The notes under the pieces are model-generated. The model had not been told where the DNA came from. It was given only the letters and a program-made list of their open reading frames with translations, and did no database searches. Shown here one piece after another: positions 1,387-12,647 of a stretch of 12,757 nucleotides of DNA. The stretch is taken from contig CAXBPH010000204.1 of assembly GCA_963977445.1 (NCBI GenBank), positions 1-12,757 on the forward strand. The letters run 5' to 3'. The stretch comes from an uncultured bacterium. Its GTDB lineage: Bacteria > Hydrogenedentota > Hydrogenedentia > Hydrogenedentales > JAEUWI01. Position 1 is the first letter of the stretch, and every line of letters starts with the position of its first letter. The position numbers were made by a program, and so were the translations under genes.

Positions 1387-1476
1387 TCAGCCGCTTTGAC
1401 GCACCAATTCAGTTAGACCTTTTTCCGCACACGACGACACCAACACCCCCAACAACGTCGTGGCGACACCCTACTC

Positions 1477-1563
1477 GGGCGAGTGGTGAAATCGGCAGAC
1501 ACGACGGACTTAAAATCCGTTTCCAGCAATGGAGTGCGGGTTCGATTCCCGCCTCGCCCACCA
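1477..1563 (+). tRNA. tRNA-Leu, anticodon TAA (UAA), 87 nt, CCA encoded
   Basis: Acceptor stem GGGCGAG/CTCGCCC. Anticodon stem ACGGA/TCCGT with loop CT-TAA-AA (anticodon 1511-1513). Long variable arm. T arm GCGGG-TTCGATT-CCCGC. Discriminator A1560 and CCA 1561-1563. Confidence 0.97.
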
Positions 1564-1571
1564 TAGTAAAT

Positions 1572-1610
1572 AAAGGCGATCCTCGATACACGGGGATCGC
1601 CTTTTTTGTT
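1572..1610 (+). terminator. Rho-independent terminator after tRNA-Leu
   Basis: 14-bp stem AAAGGCGATCCTCG (1572-1585) / CGGGGATCGCCTTT (1591-1604) with one G-U pair, loop ATACA, running into a T-tract (TTTTTTGTT, 1602-1610). Confidence 0.85.
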
Positions 1611-1621
1611 CGCCTGGATTG

Positions 1622-1642
1622 ATGAAGCACGCATGAAGCACG
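1622..1642. repeat. Tandem 10-bp direct repeat ATGAAGCACG x2 (11-bp period)
   Basis: ATGAAGCACG at 1622-1631 and 1633-1642, about 60 nt after the tRNA 3' end. Confidence 0.7.
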
Positions 1643-1660
1643 GGGGCGCGTCCACCGATG

Positions 1661-1690
1661 TTGTCGGTTCTGGGGTCCTGCTGGTACTAT
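1661..1690 (+). promoter_or_regulatory. Candidate sigma70 promoter (extended -10) for the nuclease array
   Basis: TTGTCG (1661-1666), 18-nt spacer, TACTAT (1685-1690) preceded by TG-n. It lies downstream of the tRNA terminator and upstream of the RBS at 1721-1726. Confidence 0.4.
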
Positions 1691-1732
1691 CTGAGCTGGC
1701 ATTCTGGACAACAACCTTCGGGGGGACATTTT

Positions 1733-1840
1733 GTGTTACTGCTTTCGCTTAAAGGGTTTCGGCGTCGTCTGAGTCTTGCCCAACATGTACTGCGTCATTG
1801 CACACCGGCCCCTCGGGTGGTCAGCGGGGTTGCTTCATGA
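1733..1840 (+). CDS. Leader micro-ORF 1 (35 aa, MLLLSLKGFRRRLSLAQHVLRHCTPAPRVVSGVAS), probable diverged homologue of the two downstream micro-ORFs
   Basis: GTG 1733 with GGGGGA 6 nt upstream. The stop TGA overlaps the next ATG (ATGA 1837-1840). Aligns without gaps over the first 21 codons to micro-ORF 3 (L4, L6, R11, L13, A16, L20, R21), then PAxRxV. Confidence 0.4.
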   Translation: MLLLSLKGFRRRLSLAQHVLRHCTPAPRVVSGVAS

Positions 1841-2760
1841 GTACACACGGTAAGACGGTACGTATTTATCTCGCCGATGGCTCGCCTACGGGCATCCGTC
1901 ACGCCGAGGTGGTCAACTGGACCGGGCAGGCCATTGTGTGTCCACGCGCACGCATTGGAGAGTTGTCGAATTGGGCGGAATCGCAGCGTCCGGGGATCTA
2001 CATCCTCTTTGGGGAAGACCCGGAGAATTCGCGTCCCTTGGCCTACATCGGTGAGGCGGAGAATGTGTTTGTCCGCCTGAAGCAGCACGCTAAGGGTGAG
2101 AAAGATTTCTGGGATCAGGCCGTCTTTTTTACGAGCAAGGACGACAATCTCACCAAGGGGCATGTCAAATACCTTGAGGCTCGTGTGGTAACCCTCGCCA
2201 CCGAGGCCAATCGATTTGCATTGGCGAACGGAGCTGCACCGACACAGTCAACATTGCCCCGCCCTGACCGAGACGCTATGGAAGAGTTTCTGGAGCCTGC
2301 ACGCATCCTCTTGGGCGCCCTCGGATTCACCTTGTTAGAGCCTGTTCGACGCAAGAAAGTTGATGAAACGAGCAACGATAGCGACGGACCGCTGTCCCAT
2401 GTCACCCTTTACCTGAACAAGCCGAAGTACGGTGTTGAAGCCGAGGGAATCTGGACGGACCAAGGTTTTGTCGTGTCAAAGGGCTCCATTGGTGCCCACA
2501 AACTCAACGGACAGCTCAGCTCAGGCTGGATCAAGCGGCGCGAAGAATTGATAGCTGAGGGATCGATAGAAGTTTTGGGAGAGCAAATTCGATTTACCAA
2601 GGATGTACTCTTCAACAGTCCTACCGCCGCTTCATGCACGGTGTCAGGCGGTGGAAGAAATGGCCGCATGTCATGGAAAGATCAACATGGTACGCCGCTG
2701 CGCGACTTGGAGAATGCTTTCTTAGGCAATGATTCCCCCGAAGACGAAGGAACCAACTAA
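1837..2760 (+). CDS. GIY-YIG nuclease family protein with C-terminal DUF4357-type domain, copy 1 (307 aa)
   Basis: GIYIL...AYIGEAE...RLKQH...YLE...NG, the GIY-YIG catalytic pattern. C-terminal FVVSKGS...DVLFNSPTAAS...GRNG..SWK is the DUF4357-type pattern. Start moved from 1798 to ATG 1837 by alignment with copies 2 and 3. Confidence 0.88.
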   Translation: MSTHGKTVRIYLADGSPTGIRHAEVVNWTGQAIVCPRARIGELSNWAESQRPGIYILFGEDPENSRPLAYIGEAENVFVRLKQHAKGEKDFWDQAVFFTSKDDNLTKGHVKYLEARVVTLATEANRFALANGAAPTQSTLPRPDRDAMEEFLEPARILLGALGFTLLEPVRRKKVDETSNDSDGPLSHVTLYLNKPKYGVEAEGIWTDQGFVVSKGSIGAHKLNGQLSSGWIKRREELIAEGSIEVLGEQIRFTKDVLFNSPTAASCTVSGGGRNGRMSWKDQHGTPLRDLENAFLGNDSPEDEGTN

Positions 2761-2763
2761 CCT

Positions 2764-2859
2764 ATGTCCCATTTGCTCCTGGCAGAACTCCAATATCATT
2801 TCTGGCGAGCGGCGTATTTTCTCCGTGGTCCCGCCGACCGCAACGTGGTGTCTCCATGA
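2764..2859 (+). CDS. Micro-ORF 2 (31 aa, MSHLLLAELQYHFWRAAYFLRGPADRNVVSP), HsdM N-terminus-like
   Basis: ATG 3 nt after the stop of copy 1. TGA overlaps the ATG of copy 2 (ATGA). 18/31 residues identical to micro-ORF 3, with the same length. Confidence 0.55.
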   Translation: MSHLLLAELQYHFWRAAYFLRGPADRNVVSP

Positions 2860-3770
2860 GTGGTCACGGAAAAGTTGTTCGTATCCTACTGGCCGATGGT
2901 TCACCGGCGGGCATCCGGCACGCAGAAATTGGAAACTGGACGGGACAAGCGATTGTTTGTCCACGCAGTCGCATTGGGGAACTGTCGGAATGGCCTGAGT
3001 CGCAGCGCCCAGGGCTCTACGTGCTCCATGGGGAAGATCCGGAGAGTTACCGACCGATGGCCTACATCGGTGAGGCGGAAAATGTGTTGGTGCGCCTGAA
3101 GCAGCATGTAAAGGAGAAGGACTTCTGGGACCAGGTCGTTTTTTTCACCAGCAAGGACGACAATCTCACCAAGGTTCACGTAAAATATTTGGAGTCGCGG
3201 GTGGTAGAACTCGCTAGCGTCGCAGAGCGCATTCGACTGGAAAATGGCAACATTCCGGTCCGCCCCATGCTTCCTCGGACAGATTTGGCGGCCACAGAAG
3301 AATTCATCGAGCTAGCACGAATTCTGCTGGGTGCCCTGGGTTTTCATTTTCTGGAAGCACTCCCGAGCCGAACGGAAGGCGAAGTGTCAATGGGACTCAA
3401 TGGACCGCTGTCACACATCACCTTGTACTTCAACATTCCCAAGCACGGTGTCAAAGCCGAGGGCATATGGACGGATGAGGGATTCATCGTCGCTGAAGGC
3501 GCAATTGGCTTGAAAGAGATTAAGGGTATCCTCAGTCCAGGTTGGGTTAAGAGGCGCATGGACCTGATTCAAGAGGGCACATTCGTTGAATCGGGCGAAC
3601 ACAGACGGTTGACCAAGGACGTACTCTTTAGTAGTCCGTCTGCCGCCACTGATATTATCAGTGGTCTTGGGAGAAATGGCCGAATAAGTTGGAAAGACAA
3701 GAACGGCACCACGTTGGCCGAGCTGGAAGAAGCCCTATTGAATACCACCGACAACGAAGGACATGTATAA
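2856..3770 (+). CDS. GIY-YIG nuclease family protein with C-terminal DUF4357-type domain, copy 2 (304 aa)
   Basis: GLYVL...AYIGEAE...RLKQH...YLE...NG; C-terminal DVLFSSPSAAT...GRNGRISWK. Paralogue of the flanking genes. Confidence 0.88.
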   Translation: MSGHGKVVRILLADGSPAGIRHAEIGNWTGQAIVCPRSRIGELSEWPESQRPGLYVLHGEDPESYRPMAYIGEAENVLVRLKQHVKEKDFWDQVVFFTSKDDNLTKVHVKYLESRVVELASVAERIRLENGNIPVRPMLPRTDLAATEEFIELARILLGALGFHFLEALPSRTEGEVSMGLNGPLSHITLYFNIPKHGVKAEGIWTDEGFIVAEGAIGLKEIKGILSPGWVKRRMDLIQEGTFVESGEHRRLTKDVLFSSPSAATDIISGLGRNGRISWKDKNGTTLAELEEALLNTTDNEGHV

Positions 3771-3773
3771 CCC

Positions 3774-3869
3774 ATGCCCCAACTGACCCTACCCGAACTT
3801 GAACGCCATCTGTGGAAGGCCGCTGACCTGCTCCGTGACCCCGCCAACCGTATCGTGGTGTCTCCATGA
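3774..3869 (+). CDS. Micro-ORF 3 (31 aa, MPQLTLPELERHLWKAADLLRDPANRIVVSP), HsdM N-terminus-like
   Basis: ATG 3 nt after the stop of copy 2, with an ATGA overlap into copy 3. LTLPELERHLWKAADLLR matches the familiar start of type I R-M methyltransferase subunits (LE.HLW.AAD.LRG). Confidence 0.65.
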   Translation: MPQLTLPELERHLWKAADLLRDPANRIVVSP

Positions 3870-4822
3870 GTGGTCACGGCAAGACGGTACGTATTTATCT
3901 CGCAGACGGCTCTCCCACCGGTATTCGGCATGTCGAGGTGGACAACTGGACCGGGCAGGCGATTGTCTGCCCCCGCGCACGGATTGGAGAGCTTTCGAGG
4001 TGGACCGAGTCCCAACGGCCTGGGCTCTACATGCTTCTGGGGGAAGACCCTGAGTTTTCCCGCCCCATGGTCTATATCGGCGAAGCCGAGAATGTGCTCA
4101 CGCGCTTGAAGCAACATGTAGCCAAGAAGGAGTTCTGGGACCAAGTGATTTTCTTCACCAGCAAGGACGACAACCTCACCAAGGCTCACGTCAAATACCT
4201 GGAATCGCGAACCGTGGAACTGGCTACCAAATCCATGCGCCGGGCACTGGACAATGGAACCGCTCCTCCGCCGTCAGCCCTCCCGCGTCCCGACCAAAAC
4301 GCCATGGAGGTGTTTTTGAATACGGTCCGCATGCTCCTCGAAACACTCGGCGTATCCCTGCTGGAGCCCATCTCCCACAGGCAGCCCGATGCTACGACTG
4401 GTCCAGCTCCTGACAACGCTCACGATAACGGAAAAGGCCCTCTTTCCAACATACCGCTATATTATCGACTCCCTCGTTTTGGTGTCGAAGCGACGGGTTA
4501 CGTAACCGACGAGGGTTTCGTAGTAGCCGAAGGTTCCATCGGCTCAAAAAAAGTCTGGCCATCGTTGAGTCCTAGCCACGAACAACTTCGTAACGACTTG
4601 CTCACGCGCGGCGATATCGAGGAATCTAGTAAGCACATTCGCTTCCCCCGCGATGTACTGTTTACCACGCCCTCTATCGCATGCAGAGTGATCTCTGGCG
4701 CCGGTGCAGGCGGTCGCACCAGTTGGAAAAATCAGCGCGGCACGACGCTACGTGACCTGGAAAACGAACTCGCAGGCGTTACGTCCGAAGCCGACACACC
4801 GGAAGAAAATGGGGACGACTAG
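3866..4822 (+). CDS. GIY-YIG nuclease family protein with C-terminal DUF4357-type domain, copy 3 (318 aa)
   Basis: GLYML...VYIGEAE...RLKQH...YLE...NG. Longer interdomain linker. C-terminal DVLFTTPSIAC...GAGGRTSWK, the most divergent of the three. Confidence 0.88.
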   Translation: MSGHGKTVRIYLADGSPTGIRHVEVDNWTGQAIVCPRARIGELSRWTESQRPGLYMLLGEDPEFSRPMVYIGEAENVLTRLKQHVAKKEFWDQVIFFTSKDDNLTKAHVKYLESRTVELATKSMRRALDNGTAPPPSALPRPDQNAMEVFLNTVRMLLETLGVSLLEPISHRQPDATTGPAPDNAHDNGKGPLSNIPLYYRLPRFGVEATGYVTDEGFVVAEGSIGSKKVWPSLSPSHEQLRNDLLTRGDIEESSKHIRFPRDVLFTTPSIACRVISGAGAGGRTSWKNQRGTTLRDLENELAGVTSEADTPEENGDD

Positions 4823-4824
4823 AC

Positions 4825-4990
4825 TTGCCACACTTATGGCGGATGTTTCCTGAGGCGAAGGCAACGTTGAAGCTGTGGAAGGTCGACCATTGAGTAGTGC
4901 AGTCGTACGGGGCATATCGGAAGTGCTTACGGTGCTGGTCCAACACGAAAAACTCTATGCGTCAGCACAGCGCCCGGGCTTGTATTTCTT
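4825..4990 (+). pseudogene. Probable eroded fourth [micro-ORF + GIY-YIG] unit
   Basis: TTG 4825..TGA 4893 gives LPHLWRMFPEAKATLKLWKVDH and shares CTGTGGAAGG with micro-ORF 3. Its stop overlaps TTG 4890 (TTGA), whose frame reads LSSAVVRGISEVL...SAQRPGLYFF. QRPGLY (4968-4985) is the motif leading into the GIY element of copies 2 and 3. Confidence 0.45.
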
Positions 4991-5117
4991 TCGGCCCGAA
5001 GGGTCAACGCAGCGTAGCCCAGGGCAACGCCCTGGGAAAATAAGGTAACGTATTTTATCGCCCTGAAGGGGCAACGCAGTTCCTCTTTCTCACTTACTGC
5101 ACTGCACTTTCAGGGCG
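4991..5117. repeat. REP/REPIN-like composite palindromic element
   Basis: Direct repeats TCGGCCCGAAGGGTCAACGCAG (4991-5012) and TCGCCCTGAAGGGGCAACGCAG (5058-5079), 19/22 identical. Perfect hairpin CCCAGGGC-AAC-GCCCTGGG (5018-5036). Inverted copy at 5097-5117 (17/21 identical to 5059-5079). Confidence 0.6.
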
Positions 5118-5167
5118 GGCTGACTGCCCCGGGATAAAGGCACGTTGTTTTTACGTCTTCGACGTAA

Positions 5168-5192
5168 TGCCGGCGGGCCGCCGGCGCTCCCA
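5168..5192 (-). repeat. Single REP-like palindrome of a second type (TGGGAGCGCCGGCGGCCCGCCGGCA on the minus strand)
   Basis: 7-bp GC stem GCCGGCG/CGCCGGC (5169-5185) with a GGAG-containing foot on the minus strand. Intergenic, between convergent genes, with no U-tract. Confidence 0.4.
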
Positions 5193-5427
5193 ATTTCCAA
5201 TTTTGGAAGCTGGCAACCGCAAGCCTTGGAAATTGTCCGAGATGAATCAGGGCTTATCTGCGTGATGCAACTCTCACCCATAAAGCCGTTCGTTTTACTC
5301 ACGTCTGTATAGGTGGCACCCAAAACGTTTCTTGAAATGACCGAAGAATGCGAGGCCAATAAAAAATTCTGGAGATGCCAAAATCAGGCGCTGTCGAATG
5401 CCTATGGATGCATTACGCACCCCGTTC

Positions 5428-6321
5428 CTACGATACTTCATCATTTCGGCTGGCTGAGCGCACTGACCGTATATACCACCAGCCCAATCCCAGTGACAGG
5501 GCACAGAGAACATGCCAGAAGGCGTGGCCCTGGTACCAGGCATCGGGTCCGCTGAATTGCCCGGCCACGTCGCGTTGACGGCAGATTACCCCGGCGACGA
5601 GGGCGAGGAAAGAGGCTACCAGCCAGCCGATTCGGGCATGGGGTCGGAAGTACAGGCGGTCCAATGCGTAGAAGAGGACGAGGACGAGTATGTGCAGGGG
5701 CAGGACCCGCCCGGAGGACATGGACCATTTGTATACGTAGAAGTAGATGGCCGCCACGCACACGGCCGCAATAAGCAGCAAGGTCAGGAAGGCCTCGGTG
5801 CGCAGTGCATGTAGATTGAAGGCCTTCAACCCGTTTCGGTGGAGCAGCATGGTCATGAGGGCCAGCATGGGGGGATACATGGATGCCACGTCGAGTTGTT
5901 GTCCCCAGCGCGTGAGGGAGGCGTGGAAAATGCCGCTGCCGATTCCCAGATAGCAGCAGGCAACGCCGAAGAGGAGGGTCAGGGCCGGGGGCGTGTTGCC
6001 TACGTGGGCCGAGAGCCAGGCGAAGCCCTTGCGGCGGTCCCGTTCGCCCAGGGCCAGGGCATACAACCCCACGAGCACAAAGGCGAGATTGGACCAGGTA
6101 TTCGCACGGGTCCGGAAGATACTTTCGATGTAAACGGTCTCGCTGTAGTGGGCTTTTCGTAATTCCCCACTTTCGCGCAGGTGCTCCCATACATTCACAT
6201 CGGCGTAAAAATAGAAGGCCGCCGCCAGCAGGAAAATCAGCAGCAGGAAGGCACCCAGTACACGCAGGTGAAGGGCGATGGTGGTCCGCCGACCGCAATC
6301 TCCTTGGGACGTGCTTTCCAC
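5428..6321 (-). CDS. Ceramidase-like integral membrane hydrolase (CREST superfamily), 297 aa
   Basis: Several hydrophobic segments plus the CREST/alkaline-ceramidase motifs NTWSN, SGIFH (SxxxH), QQLD and GHAFWH (HxxWH). GTG start directly after the upstream TAA, with GGAG just before it. Confidence 0.8.
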   Translation of the reverse strand: MESTSQGDCGRRTTIALHLRVLGAFLLLIFLLAAAFYFYADVNVWEHLRESGELRKAHYSETVYIESIFRTRANTWSNLAFVLVGLYALALGERDRRKGFAWLSAHVGNTPPALTLLFGVACCYLGIGSGIFHASLTRWGQQLDVASMYPPMLALMTMLLHRNGLKAFNLHALRTEAFLTLLLIAAVCVAAIYFYVYKWSMSSGRVLPLHILVLVLFYALDRLYFRPHARIGWLVASFLALVAGVICRQRDVAGQFSGPDAWYQGHAFWHVLCALSLGLGWWYIRSVRSASRNDEVS

Positions 6322-7305
6322 TTAGTTCTCCACCGCAAGGAAGGATTGGTACATGCCGTCGAAGTCGGGTTCCTTATCCGCTGCGACGTCGAATACGTAG
6401 AGCCCAAAGCGCACGGGGAGGACACGGCCCTTTTCCACGGGCGTGCTGTCTGGCGCTACGGCGTCATCCTTGGGCCCGGTCATGGCTTTCTTGCCGAAGG
6501 GGTTGGCCACGATGAGTCCATAGTCCCGGGAATGAAACCAGGCGGGACGGAAGTTCTTGGGCGATGCCATGACGTTGATACCAACCCAACGATCATCGAG
6601 CTTTCCGAAACCGGCACACCAATCGGCGTTTTTGCCCCAGGTACCTGCTTCCTGTTTGCCGCCCGCACTGTTGCGGATCAGGCCACCACCGTGACGCACG
6701 CTGAGGGGCGTGGCCACCCGTACGCCGAAGCCCATTTCTTCCTGGTCCCCAAAGGCAAAGGGGCCCTCCGGGGAACGAAAGATACTGGTGGCGACCATGA
6801 GATAGCCATTTTCCTCGGCTTTGATGCTATAGAGGCACTGCTCTTCACACACAACCGTCGCAGGCTCGGTGGGCGCTTCGTAGGCATTCTGCACCGTGAA
6901 CATGAGGGTTCCATCGACCAACACGGGCTCCATGGCAAATCGAATATGGCGAACCCGGGCGTTGTTGCGCCAGAAGTCCGCTCCATTGATATCGCCAAAG
7001 GCCAGCCAGGCACCGGGGTGGAAATCGGGGTGGTCTACGTTGTCTTTGTCGATGACCGGATCGGTGGGATGATTGCGGGATACGGGGACGCCATCGGGCG
7101 TCATGAGTCCTTCGAAATAGGGGCGGGGCAACGTCGCATCTTCCCAGACATAGGTGACGATGGGTTGGGTGCCCATACGTATTTCCAGACTGCTCTCCCC
7201 TTTTTCAAAGCTGATTGCCGGGGCAGCAGCAACCGCTCCCATGGGAATGGCAAGCGCTACCGACAGGGCCACTGCCACACGGGTTGCCCATAATTTTCGT
7301 GCCAT
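6322..7305 (-). CDS. Secreted DUF6807 / 'PmoA-family' (PF14100-type) protein, 327 aa; not methane monooxygenase
   Basis: Signal-peptide-like N-terminus. Motifs DHPDFHPGAWLAFGDINGADFW, GDQEEMGFGVRVA, TWGKNADW and WFHSRDYGLIVANPFG. GGGAG RBS upstream of ATG 7305. Confidence 0.75.
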   Translation of the reverse strand: MARKLWATRVAVALSVALAIPMGAVAAAPAISFEKGESSLEIRMGTQPIVTYVWEDATLPRPYFEGLMTPDGVPVSRNHPTDPVIDKDNVDHPDFHPGAWLAFGDINGADFWRNNARVRHIRFAMEPVLVDGTLMFTVQNAYEAPTEPATVVCEEQCLYSIKAEENGYLMVATSIFRSPEGPFAFGDQEEMGFGVRVATPLSVRHGGGLIRNSAGGKQEAGTWGKNADWCAGFGKLDDRWVGINVMASPKNFRPAWFHSRDYGLIVANPFGKKAMTGPKDDAVAPDSTPVEKGRVLPVRFGLYVFDVAADKEPDFDGMYQSFLAVEN

Positions 7306-10682: not shown

Positions 10683-12518
10683 ATGGAGTCAGCATCTTCC
10701 TTGGAATCACCCCACTATCCCTTCCTGCGTAAGGCGGGGCGCATCCTCAATTCGGGTCAATCCCGTACCCTCACGCTGACTGGAAATATTTACGACCTTT
10801 TTTGTCGGAAGAATGATGGGGCGGGGGAATATGTTCCGCTTATCGATTTCCTACTGGCCCACTGGTCTATCCCCAACCACATTGTTATCGTCTACGAGCT
10901 GAATGGACCCATTCGTTTTGTAAACGAAGGCGATCAGGCGCTTCTCCGCGATGCATGGCTGCGTTGGCGCACCGGGTTGAACCCCGACGACCTCGCCATA
11001 AAACGCATGCTGTCCCGTGGGAAAATCGACGCGGAAACCGCGTTGCACCAGAAGGACTTTGACCAGCAACTCCACCAGGCGATTGGTCAACCCACCGTCG
11101 CGCTGGAGCTACTGCGCCAGTTTTGCCTCTGTTCGCGCAGCGCGATAAACGGCGTGCCCCTATTGTCCCAGAATCTCATTGTCCTCGTCGAGGGGGCAGA
11201 TTTGATCCTGCCCGAGGGCGAAGTCACCCGCCTCTCTGATCGGGACCGTCATCGCCTCCATATTTGCTACGACTGGTTTTCCGACCCCGGCTTCGTCAAC
11301 GGCAATGACTCGGTCATCCTCATCGCCGAATCCCGCAGTCAACTCAACCAGCGGGTCGGGCGACTCCCCCACCTTCTCGATGTCGCCATCCCGGCTCCCG
11401 ACGAGTCGGTGCGGGCCCACTTCATTGCCACCTATCGTGCGTCCCTGGGCGACGGCCCCTCCCTCAATCTATGGGGAACCGATGCCGACCTCGCACGGGC
11501 CACGGCCGGCCTGTCCATCCATGCCCTCATGCAACTCCTGAAGGGGGCAATCCACGATGGGACCCCCCTCCGCCAGGAGCGCGTCGTAGAAAAGGTCGCC
11601 GACTACATTGCCAGTCAGTTGGGCGAAGACATGGTGGAGTTCAAACGCCCGGCCCACACCCTGGACGATGTGGTGGGCTTTGCTCGTCTTAAAGAGTTTT
11701 TGCGTGAAGAGTTTATGCCCCGGGTGTCTGCCGAAGGGGACGATGCCCTGCCCGGTGCCGCCGTGGGTGGGGCGATCGGCAGCGGGAAGACCTTCATTTT
11801 CGAAGCGGTCGCTGCGGAACTCGATATGGTCGTCCTGGTGCTGAAAAACATTCGCAGCCAGTGGTACGGTCAGACCGACGTGCTTTTTGAGCGCCTCCGC
11901 CGCGTGTTGGAAGCCCTGAACAAGGTGCTCATCTTCGTCGATGAGGCCGATACCCAGTTTGGCGGTGTCGGCGCCGAGGAACATGCTACCGAACGACGCC
12001 TCACGGGAAAAATCCAGGCCATGATGTCGGACCCACGTCTCCGGGGTCAGGTCACCTGGCTGCTCATGACCGCACGCATCCATCTGCTCTCGCCGGACAT
12101 TCGACGTCCGGGACGGGTAGGGGATCTCATCATTCCCGTGCTCGACCCGGAAGGCGACGACCGAAAGGCCTTTATTCATTGGATGGTGAAACCCGTCCTG
12201 GGCGACACGATTGACGAAGCCACCATTGCAGCCCTCACGCTGGCAACGAAGGGCTTTGCTGCGGCCAACTTCGCGGCCATGCGCTCCGAACTGAAAGCCC
12301 GCCATCGCCTCGTCGGCCACCTGAGCCTCGAAGGTGCCCTGGAAGCCATCCACGATCATCTTCCGCCGCCCATTGAAGATACGCGACGCTATCAGACCTT
12401 GCAGGCCCTGGTGAATTGTACCCGACGCAGCCTGCTGCCCGATCCCGGCGCGACCGACGAGGAACGAGCCGCCTGGGGCGATGAAATTCGTGCACTTGAG
12501 GCACGGGGAATTCGGTAA
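10683..12518 (+). CDS. Classical-clade AAA+ ATPase with a degenerate N-terminal AAA-like module (611 aa)
   Basis: TLDDVVGFARLKEFL, Walker A GAIGSGKT, pore loop RSQWYGQ, Walker B LIFVDEAD, SRH with RRPGR. The N-terminal half has remnants TLTGNIYD and IVLVEGAD. Start at ATG 10683 (or GTG 10680), 4 nt after the upstream stop; the track start at 10554 overlaps the previous gene. Confidence 0.9.
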   Translation: MESASSLESPHYPFLRKAGRILNSGQSRTLTLTGNIYDLFCRKNDGAGEYVPLIDFLLAHWSIPNHIVIVYELNGPIRFVNEGDQALLRDAWLRWRTGLNPDDLAIKRMLSRGKIDAETALHQKDFDQQLHQAIGQPTVALELLRQFCLCSRSAINGVPLLSQNLIVLVEGADLILPEGEVTRLSDRDRHRLHICYDWFSDPGFVNGNDSVILIAESRSQLNQRVGRLPHLLDVAIPAPDESVRAHFIATYRASLGDGPSLNLWGTDADLARATAGLSIHALMQLLKGAIHDGTPLRQERVVEKVADYIASQLGEDMVEFKRPAHTLDDVVGFARLKEFLREEFMPRVSAEGDDALPGAAVGGAIGSGKTFIFEAVAAELDMVVLVLKNIRSQWYGQTDVLFERLRRVLEALNKVLIFVDEADTQFGGVGAEEHATERRLTGKIQAMMSDPRLRGQVTWLLMTARIHLLSPDIRRPGRVGDLIIPVLDPEGDDRKAFIHWMVKPVLGDTIDEATIAALTLATKGFAAANFAAMRSELKARHRLVGHLSLEGALEAIHDHLPPPIEDTRRYQTLQALVNCTRRSLLPDPGATDEERAAWGDEIRALEARGIR

Positions 12519-12647
12519 CACGTAGCTGCACCCCGAACACAGATTCTCTCGATAACTGGCCCCCACCAACAAGTTGTGCTACCGAAAAGCTGCCCTGCAT
12601 TCTGCAGACCTTCACAGGGCAATCGCATTAAAATGGTTCAGGGGGAA

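Follow-up and report, generated by a model that had tools for sequence, protein, structure and literature searches.

hsdM-derived micro-ORFs between three tandem PDC-S14 nuclease genes of a Hydrogenedentales bacterium, a putative ribosome relay

Layout of the nuclease array

The DNA analysed here, called the window, is the whole 12,757-nucleotide (nt) stretch of contig CAXBPH010000204.1 (assembly GCA_963977445.1, forward strand) from an uncultured bacterium of Hydrogenedentales. It carries three tandem nuclease genes, i.e., g1, g2, and g3, and two micro open reading frames (ORFs), stub1 and stub2, fill the spacers between them. The stubs are the 5' ends of hsdM, a gene of type I restriction-modification (R-M) systems, and they are probably kept as a relay for ribosomes. 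Related loci are given as L numbers and proteins as P numbers. The features of the array are listed below (aa, amino acids; E, E-value of the profile match).

1733..1840, + strand: leader ORF before g1; 35 codons from GTG 1733; TGA overlaps the g1 ATG (ATGA)
1837..2760, + strand: nuclease gene g1; 307 aa; DUF4357 E 2.4e-15; PDC-S14 E 2e-105
2764..2859, + strand: stub1 (micro-ORF 1); hsdM codons 1-25, then 6 junction codons; stop overlaps the start of g2
2821..2869, + strand: 49-nt block, copy 1; from stub codon 20 to nuclease codon 5; short inverted repeat around ATGA
2856..3770, + strand: nuclease gene g2; 304 aa; DUF4357 E 1.5e-16; PDC-S14 E 1.9e-99
3774..3869, + strand: stub2 (micro-ORF 2); hsdM codons 1-25, the junction of stub1, and a stop overlapping the g3 start
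3831..3879, + strand: 49-nt block, copy 2
3866..4822, + strand: nuclease gene g3; 318 aa; PDC-S14 E 2.4e-100; model mean pLDDT (predicted local distance difference test) 85
4823..4895, + strand: candidate third, decayed hsdM remnant after g3; without ATG; no nuclease gene behind

Both stubs consist of 31 codons. The translation of stub1 (2764-2859) is MSHLLLAELQYHFWRAAYFLRGPADRNVVSP and that of stub2 (3774-3869) is MPQLTLPELERHLWKAADLLRDPANRIVVSP, each followed by the stop. The stub ATGs lie 3 nt past the TAA of the preceding nuclease gene (2758-2760 and 3768-3770), and the stub TGAs overlap the ATG of the next one, making ATGA at 2856-2859 and 3866-3869. Between the stubs, 18/31 residues are identical, and six of these 18 use different synonymous codons, i.e., L4, L6, L9, A16, A17, and R26. 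The core L-x-L-x-E-L-x-x-H-x-W-x-A-A is kept in both. An earlier reading of this DNA by sequence only had described this start spacing, this overlap, and these residue and codon counts, and the coordinates and the per-codon table agree with it. On the + strand between the nuclease genes, no promoter-like site and no convincing terminator were found; therefore, all three nuclease genes and both micro-ORFs appear to form a single transcription unit.

Origin of the stubs

Homology of the stubs was searched by BLASTP against the HsdM protein of L002, a locus of a Hydrogenedentales metagenome-assembled genome (MAG). Stub2 showed 19/21 identities (E 2e-11) and stub1 showed 14/25 (E 3e-7). The whole window was searched by tblastn with P0126, a full-length HsdM whose source calls it 'type I restriction enzyme M protein'. 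Only the two stubs were hit, with residues 1-21 (E 5e-7) and residues 1-25 (E 3e-3), and no HsdM sequence past residue 25 was found anywhere in the window by this search. Because no N6_Mtase catalytic domain follows, the stubs are fragments and not enzymes. They are members neither of HsdM as enzymes nor of any antitoxin family.

In profile searches, the PADLOC MTase_I profile matched stub2 over profile positions 2-21 (E 0.0011). The Pfam family HsdM_N (PF12161) matched stub2 over positions 1-15 with 13.1 bits (E 0.16; cut-off 24.5 bits) and did not match stub1. The HsdM_N search, which the sequence-only reading had proposed as a check, thus did not reach its cut-off, but peptides of 22-25 residues are too short for this search to decide by itself.

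The stubs were also compared with a profile of HsdM N-termini, made of the 113 out of 121 HsdM proteins (P0125-P0245) that have the motif and at least 13 residues before the W. These N-termini are near-invariant through residue 30. In the stub-related HsdM family, the N-termini share 70-98% identity over 165 residues, across phyla. Stub2 equals the HsdM consensus through residue 21 except for K15 (3/113), and 20 of its first 22 residues match. Stub1 retains G22 and D25 of HsdM, but its L5, Y11, F13, Y18, and F19 were each seen in 0/113 HsdMs at those positions. The near-invariant residues T5, E10, R11, L13, D18, and L/I19 are gone from stub1.

A profile of both stubs was searched against 1.84 billion representative proteins and gave 38 matches at E<=0.001. 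Of these, 37 covered only positions ~1-27, and most were 35-300 aa long. All 31 positions were matched only in the window's own protein. No sibling stub with the same junction was found among these representatives, which is weak evidence because 31-aa ORFs are seldom called in protein sets. Short predicted proteins of 35-300 aa (P0246-P0282) showed an intact HsdM head followed by unrelated sequence at differing points. Since many of them run off after the HsdM head, hsdM 5' ends that are cut short or out of frame occur commonly in genomes and metagenomes.

Operon context of the nuclease family

In L002, an ORF that starts with MSQLTLPELERHLW, also given as MSQLTLPELERHLWGAADLLRG, comes after the nuclease gene and matched HsdM_N with E 4e-25. 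A full hsdM lies directly 3' of the nuclease gene in L012 and L043, and in L012 its start overlaps the nuclease stop by 4 nt. In total, HsdM_N was found in 3/73 scanned downstream ORFs (L002, L012, and L043). The 73 ORFs came from the 77 loci having one, with L034, L036, L046, and L076 left out as near-repeats, and for L002 the adjacent ORF was scanned instead of the longest. In L007, a 41-codon hsdM remnant was placed behind the nuclease gene, and its TAA-CCC-start spacing is identical to that of the window.

Upstream ORFs were scanned as well, i.e., the 21 on the same strand out of 75. An HsdR of the EcoEI type lies directly upstream of the nuclease gene in five of the 21 (L004, L012, L014, L027, and L038). 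Other upstream ORFs were another HsdR (L032), HsdM (L005), and BrxL (L055). From these HsdM_N and HsdR neighbours, the native setting of the nuclease family is inside type I R-M operons, typically in the order hsdR - nuclease - hsdM.

The origin of the stubs, which the sequence-only reading had placed in an hsdM head, is borne out by two results, i.e., HsdM alignments that begin at residue 1 and fall at the stubs only, and hsdM genes after the nuclease gene in relatives. Its expectation that homologues of the nuclease would stand beside hsdM also held, with full genes in L012 and L043 and remnants in L002 and L007. The stubs are therefore confirmed as the first ~25 codons of the type I R-M hsdM that natively follows the PDC-S14 nuclease gene.

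The hsdM of L002 is itself broken. At L002:2864-3637, an ORF with HsdM_N at residues 9-132 passes after ~165 codons into the C-terminal 80 residues of a YgjP-like metallopeptidase, as if an inner part of a type I R-M locus had been deleted. Directly after this ORF lies a tRNA-Lys gene (L002:3738-3813, - strand). In the Paraglaciecola genome of L055 (L055:4803-7004), the end of brxL, the gene for the Lon-like protease of bacteriophage exclusion (BREX), overlaps the nuclease gene in place of hsdR or hsdM. Therefore, the nuclease family rides behind other defence operons too.

The nuclease genes

The PADLOC family PDC-S14, a candidate for phage defence, consists of a GIY-YIG nuclease with a C-terminal DUF4357, and g1, g2, and g3 matched it at full length (E 1e-99 to 1e-105). 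DUF4357 was found in all three proteins with 46.8-60.5 bits, above the Pfam cut-off of 38.4. The Pfam GIY-YIG domain matched weakly (13.3-15.9 bits; cut-off 22.6). The Y-x-G-E and R-x-x-x-H columns were invariant in 23 sequences. A structure model of g3 was built from 23 sequences (mean pLDDT 85). The model showed a weak partial match to the GIY-YIG domain of UvrC (E 0.1, probability 0.9, template modeling score 0.55-0.58 on the target). A fold search with the g3 model gave no match at E<=0.001, and a sequence search of the PDB gave none. Co-occurrence of DUF4357 with GIY-YIG is mentioned in the excerpt of PMC4619093, and that of PMC11090510 places DUF4357 among the domains fused to McrB homologues. 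Demonstrated defence activity for the PDC-S14 family was not found in the excerpts of the literature examined.

The three proteins share 59.5-65.5% pairwise aa identity. Their synonymous sites are saturated, with a proportion of synonymous differences (pS) of 0.73-0.80 and of non-synonymous differences (pN) of 0.22-0.29, and the nuclease copies are old. In a quick maximum-likelihood tree of 118 rows, g1, g2, and g3 did not form a clade, and g3 was grouped with P0007 (support 100). At the aa level, g1 is 74.8% identical to its single-copy counterpart in L001, versus 65.5% and 61.4% to its array neighbours. The nearest protein to g2 in identity was P0008 (69%).

The 5' ends of g1 (1837-1960) and g3 (3866-3990) showed 87-93% nt identity in 30-nt windows. 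Between these two genes, pS was 0.53 in the first 120 columns versus 0.75 over the whole genes, and a run of ~23 nt was identical by eye count. This pattern suggests short gene-conversion tracts between the non-adjacent copies g1 and g3.

Plasmids were searched for stub-separated tandem arrays. None was found in 134 records, all below 60% identity, together with an inspection of plasmid pHRM2a. In pHRM2a (L081, NC_012109.1), a GIY-YIG nuclease gene lies at 5998-6885 and a shorter, DUF4357-only gene at 12084-12632, 6 kb away. Both precede a copy of hypothetical protein WP_012663339.1. This is a dispersed two-gene duplication and not a stub-separated array.

Shared junction and 49-nt block

The residues P23, A24, R26, and VVSP are common to both stubs and were found in 0/113 HsdMs at those positions. 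Because these residues are shared by the stubs and alien to HsdM, both stubs have one junction after approximately codon 25. In their last 30 nt, the stubs agree at 27/30 positions, versus 40/66 in the first 66 nt (Fisher p 0.004). The similarity continues into the nuclease genes as a 49-nt block, with 5/49 differences versus 44/107 at the flanking positions (Fisher p 7.6e-5).

An 8-bp inverted repeat brackets the ATGA, and the two differences of stub1 in the 5' arm keep the pairing as G-U. In the predicted folds of both spacers, an inner stem lies over the AUG. The fold z-scores are -1.85 and -1.17, i.e., 10/200 and 27/200 shuffles fold equally well, and the region before g1 folds worse than its shuffles (z +1.74). 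The block was not conserved before g1 or before the nuclease genes of L001, L002, and L007. No Rfam family was found on the spacers. From the alignments, the 49-nt block reads as a recombination or conversion tract rather than a universally constrained element.

The heads of the stubs are from two hsdM alleles on one junction. Two-allele heads on a shared junction, together with the near-identical block, indicate that the array is a mosaic made by recombination, as opposed to a simple duplication of recent date. The two-allele heads and the non-sister nuclease copies would fit unequal recombination in which a real hsdM head met the older leader, likewise derived from hsdM, of another module.

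Synonymous codons and selection on the peptide

Over the first 22 codons, stub1 and stub2 differ with pS 0.79 and pN 0.27 (Fisher p 5e-4), which is like the divergence of the nuclease genes and at first sight resembles purifying selection. Against the hsdM of L002, stub2 showed 10.3 synonymous and 4.7 non-synonymous differences (Fisher p 1.5e-4), and stub1 showed 5.5 and 11.5 (Fisher p 0.36). The pN/pS of stub1 against real hsdM is ~0.7-0.9 (Fisher p 0.36 and 1.0), and the evolution of stub1 is indistinguishable from neutral. Its silent sites follow the L002/L007 hsdM allele (pS 0.31-0.34), and those of stub2 are on a different background (pS 0.61-0.74). The replacement rate of stub1 is ~10x that between the L002 and L007 heads, i.e., pN 0.23-0.27 versus 0.012-0.024.

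A dead hsdM remnant in L007 (7922-8110) served as a control. Its ATG is changed to ATA, ~41 codons are intact with one replacement (A17T), unrelated sequence follows, and no nuclease gene lies behind. Against the hsdM of L002, this dead remnant showed pS 0.32 and pN 0.012 (p 9e-6). Because it carries the same signature, the synonymous differences are silent on selection of the stubs. The synonymous differences at identical residues are inherited from the period of a working hsdM. The view that they mark a peptide kept by selection after truncation is not supported, given the same pattern in the dead remnant and the neutral change of stub1. The roles that the sequence-only reading had proposed for the peptide, i.e., an inhibitor, an antitoxin, or a mimic of HsdM, gained no positive evidence. 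A complex prediction of stub2 with nuclease g3 gave a score of 0.01 and a mark of 0.32, which weighs neither for nor against binding.

Leader frames before the nuclease genes of relatives

The start of the nuclease gene was compared in a close clade of six genes, i.e., g1, g2, g3, and those of L001, L002, and L007. In 6/6, an open ORF of 31-39 codons runs from a start codon to an NTGA overlap with the nuclease start. The overlap is ATGA, or GTGA in L002. In the overlap frame, no stop was found in the last 31 codons, and the other two frames had 0-3 stops. The frame of the leader before g1 is open from ATG 1658, i.e., for 60 codons, and a family search with this leader ORF gave no match. The leader peptides of L001, L002, L007, and the region before g1 are unrelated in sequence, and only the two stubs are alike. 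Thus, the start codon, the open frame, and the stop overlapping the nuclease start are conserved, and the peptide is not. A stop codon occupies the overlapping position in 35 of all 83 nuclease genes, and 12 of the 83 are overlapped by an upstream ORF that is 25 codons or longer. Among such ORFs are hsdR (L004 and L027) and hsdM (L005).

A purine-rich motif (GAAGGA, GGGGAG, or AAGGGG) was found 9-13 nt 5' of every stub or leader ATG. It is kept in L002 and L007 though the nuclease tail that was formerly encoded there is gone. In g2 and g3, no GGAG or AGGA is present in the 12 nt before the ATG. The hsdM remnants without a nuclease gene behind have lost the ATG, i.e., ATA in L007 and probably the region after g3. 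In L007, the leader has a start context with significant likeness to the nuclease tail plus hsdM start of L002 (3/2000 shuffles), so this leader is an old hsdM head.

For the leader of L001, a likeness to hsdM seen by eye (SELEYH versus AELQYH) was unproven, as the shuffles were not significant. A tRNA-like 3' end upstream in L001 was confirmed by neither ARAGORN nor Rfam. An 11-nt unit repeated four times in tandem was seen by eye at L001:262-305, upstream of the nuclease locus.

Surroundings of the array

Two further features lie before the array.

1477..1563, + strand: tRNA-Leu (anticodon taa); ARAGORN; Rfam tRNA 62 bits
1572-1604: terminator-like hairpin after tRNA-Leu

The nuclease array starts ~170 nt 3' of the tRNA-Leu(taa). 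A tRNA gene with a strong terminator hairpin directly before an array (1477-1607) is a typical island insertion point. A direct repeat of the tRNA-Leu 3' end was not found downstream within 1400-5500. An integron-like cassette array was considered and rejected; an integrase domain was found in 0/13 other scanned ORFs of the window, and no attC-like repeat was present. Inverted repeats of at least 14 nt in 1400-5500 were the tRNA terminator and one 14-nt pair 2250 nt apart, neither of them attC-like.

Behind g3, the region showed a 13-nt match to stub2 only (12/1000 shuffles reach the score), and nothing significant was found against stub1 or the hsdM of L002. This segment is possibly a third hsdM remnant, which is not established. 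After the array (4955-5100), two similar short segments lie at ~4998-5015 and ~5060-5078. The Rfam small RNA Acido-Lenti-1 matched weakly on the - strand at 4992-5036 (25.3 bits, gathering score 37, E 0.009).

Interpretation

The explanation preferred here, which we hold to be moderately probable, is that the stubs are hsdM 5' relics left by recombination and kept as a ribosome relay, with the peptide as a by-product. In the native order hsdR - nuclease - hsdM, hsdM starts at or just past the nuclease stop. Recombination of an hsdM 5' end with sequence immediately upstream of another nuclease copy would then have produced tandem nuclease genes, in which the hsdM head continues through a short junction into the start of the next nuclease gene. 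From the comparison with relatives, we infer a relay of ribosomes through the stubs. A ribosome ending g1 would restart 3 nt on at stub1, stop at the ATGA, and begin again on g2, and a like two-step relay may lead from g2 through stub2 to g3. The stubs would persist as carriers of the hsdM translation start and of the ATGA overlap, and the relay would replace the native coupling of the nuclease gene to hsdR, hsdM, or brxL. In this way, expression of the three paralogues may be linked without initiation regions of their own, and the dependence may be partial given the Shine-Dalgarno-like motifs of L002 and L007. The peptide itself is most likely a by-product. The sequence-only reading had offered either a ribosome-relay leader or a functional peptide as the reason that the stub stayed open. 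The relatives give the best support to the relay, and the peptide half gained nothing.

Several observations weigh against this explanation. Three diverged tandem copies were found in the window only, i.e., the array was seen once, and none of 80 related loci has more than one nuclease copy. The openness of the stubs was tested by dinucleotide shuffles of the 150 nt upstream (2000 trials). By chance, an ORF of 30 codons or more that ended at the overlap appeared in 307/2000 for g2 and 184/2000 for g3, and such an ORF is expected by chance at 0.09-0.35 per locus. Thus, the openness of the stubs alone is not beyond chance, while their HsdM similarity is. The six leaders are not independent. The stubs share a junction, the leaders of L001 and the region before g1 are orthologous in their 3' part (0/2000 shuffles), and those of L002 and L007 are related (15/2000). 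Against hsdM DNA, the leaders of L001 and L002 were not significant (850/2000 and 1623/2000). Shine-Dalgarno-like motifs are present before the nuclease start of L002 (GGGAG) and L007 (GGTGA), so the nuclease gene may not always need coupling. An ancient triplication in place with gene conversion would also give the same mosaic. Finally, stub2 is a near-perfect HsdM N-terminus with two deviations in 22 residues, and selection may still have acted on its peptide.

Purely neutral debris of the hsdM junction, open by luck or recency and without a role, while the nuclease genes use their own starts, is unlikely. The neutral change of stub1 against hsdM (p 0.36), its five residues unseen in HsdM, and the equally 'conserved' look of the dead L007 remnant fit such debris well. 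An ORF of at least 30 codons at the overlap in 9-35% of shuffles and the many truncated HsdM heads in public sets (37/38 matches) also need no function. However, the 6/6 leaders of the close clade keep start, frame, and overlap despite length change and near-total turnover of the peptide. The loss of the ATG in remnants without a nuclease gene behind, and the purine-rich motif kept before the leader ATG in L002 and L007, also speak against debris. Much less probable is that the stubs are functional micro-peptides, which would either mimic the first HsdM helix or act as inhibitor or antitoxin by binding to the nuclease or to a type I R-M partner; we give this very little credence. It would account for the match of stub2 to the HsdM consensus (20/22 residues), for its mostly synonymous differences from hsdM (10.3 versus 4.7, p 1.5e-4), and for the core motif in both stubs. 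The signature of the dead L007 remnant, however, means that such a signature can predate the truncation. Stub1 has lost T5, E10, R11, L13, D18, and L/I19 with a pN ~10x that of real heads, the corresponding leaders of L001, L002, L007, and g1 are unrelated, and no sibling with the same junction was found among the 1.84 billion representative proteins.

The 49-nt block may itself be the functional unit, either as an RNA hairpin, with the nuclease start concealed up to the moment of stub translation, or as a handle for cassette exchange by recombination. This is improbable. The identity of 44/49 between the spacers with flanks of ~59% identity (p 7.6e-5) and the inverted repeat around ATGA, with kept G-U pairing and the AUG in an inner stem, would suit both forms, and the similar 5' ends of g1 and g3 show that short conversion tracts occur here. 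The fold energies are nevertheless ordinary (z -1.85 and -1.17, and +1.74 before g1), the block is not conserved before g1, L001, L002, and L007 and has no Rfam match, and a recent conversion tract yields near-identity without function.

The preferred relay explanation can be extended by a reading that we regard as speculative and rather unlikely. The hsdM head may be a portable adaptor and a homology handle that make PDC-S14 genes cassettes moved by homologous recombination. Because HsdM N-termini are extremely conserved, an excised piece of junction, nuclease gene, and hsdM head could recombine into any such hsdM head. Movement of this kind would explain the closer relatives elsewhere for each of the three nuclease copies and the two-allele stub heads on one junction. 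It would also explain the remnant of nuclease tail and hsdM start before the single-copy genes in L007 and L002, and the survival of the nuclease gene when the surrounding R-M genes were deleted, as in L002, L007, and the window. If true, a cassette would arrive with a ready translation start and a stop/start relay, and arrays would be built from diverged cassettes of different origin.

Comparison with known systems

Translational coupling through overlapping stop and start codons is known from the trp operon. Coupling within a type I R-M operon, between hsdM and hsdS of EcoKI, is described in the excerpt of PMC3510504, and the stubs are alike in that an upstream stop overlaps the next start. 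An identical 4-nt overlap joins the nuclease gene to hsdR in L004 and L027 and to hsdM in L005, and in L012 hsdM overlaps the nuclease stop. Unlike these full genes, the upstream frame in the window is a 31-codon relic of a neighbour gene that starts 3 nt after a stop, i.e., a two-step relay. As truncated hsdM remnants, the stubs are like those behind the same nuclease gene in L002 (cut at ~165 codons) and L007 (~41 codons). The remnants of the window differ in that they are placed between two nuclease genes, share one junction, keep the ATG, and end on the next start.

Leader peptides of attenuation and arrest systems are short ORFs directly upstream of the regulated gene and translationally linked to it, and they depend on conserved peptide or codon content. 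The layout of the stubs is alike, but their peptide is not conserved among relatives. The layout is also like that of type II toxin-antitoxin systems, i.e., a short ORF with a 4-nt overlap to a nuclease gene in a defence context. The stubs differ from these in that they have no conserved peptide and no DNA-binding fold or family match, and are an hsdM fragment. In the listed titles and beginnings of abstracts on DUF4357, PDC-S14, hsdM coupling, and GIY-YIG/hsdM defence islands, no hsdM-derived leader ORF is described. The stubs are best read as ordinary overlapping-gene coupling in mode and as ordinary truncated hsdM remnants in origin.

Significance

For annotation, the stubs are a warning that a micro-ORF may be open and seem 'conserved with synonymous changes' without coding for a functional peptide, and the dead L007 remnant is a ready control. 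For defence islands, a rare three-copy array of diverged PDC-S14 paralogues is documented, and PDC-S14 is shown as a candidate family habitually embedded in type I R-M operons between hsdR and hsdM. In the window, a fragment of a neighbour gene would be re-used as an expression adaptor, i.e., the nuclease gene retains an hsdM head of 25 codons as an upstream ORF of its own. Such an adaptor may be kept once the nuclease gene, which is normally carried along by hsdR or hsdM translation, has left its operon or has become part of a tandem stack.

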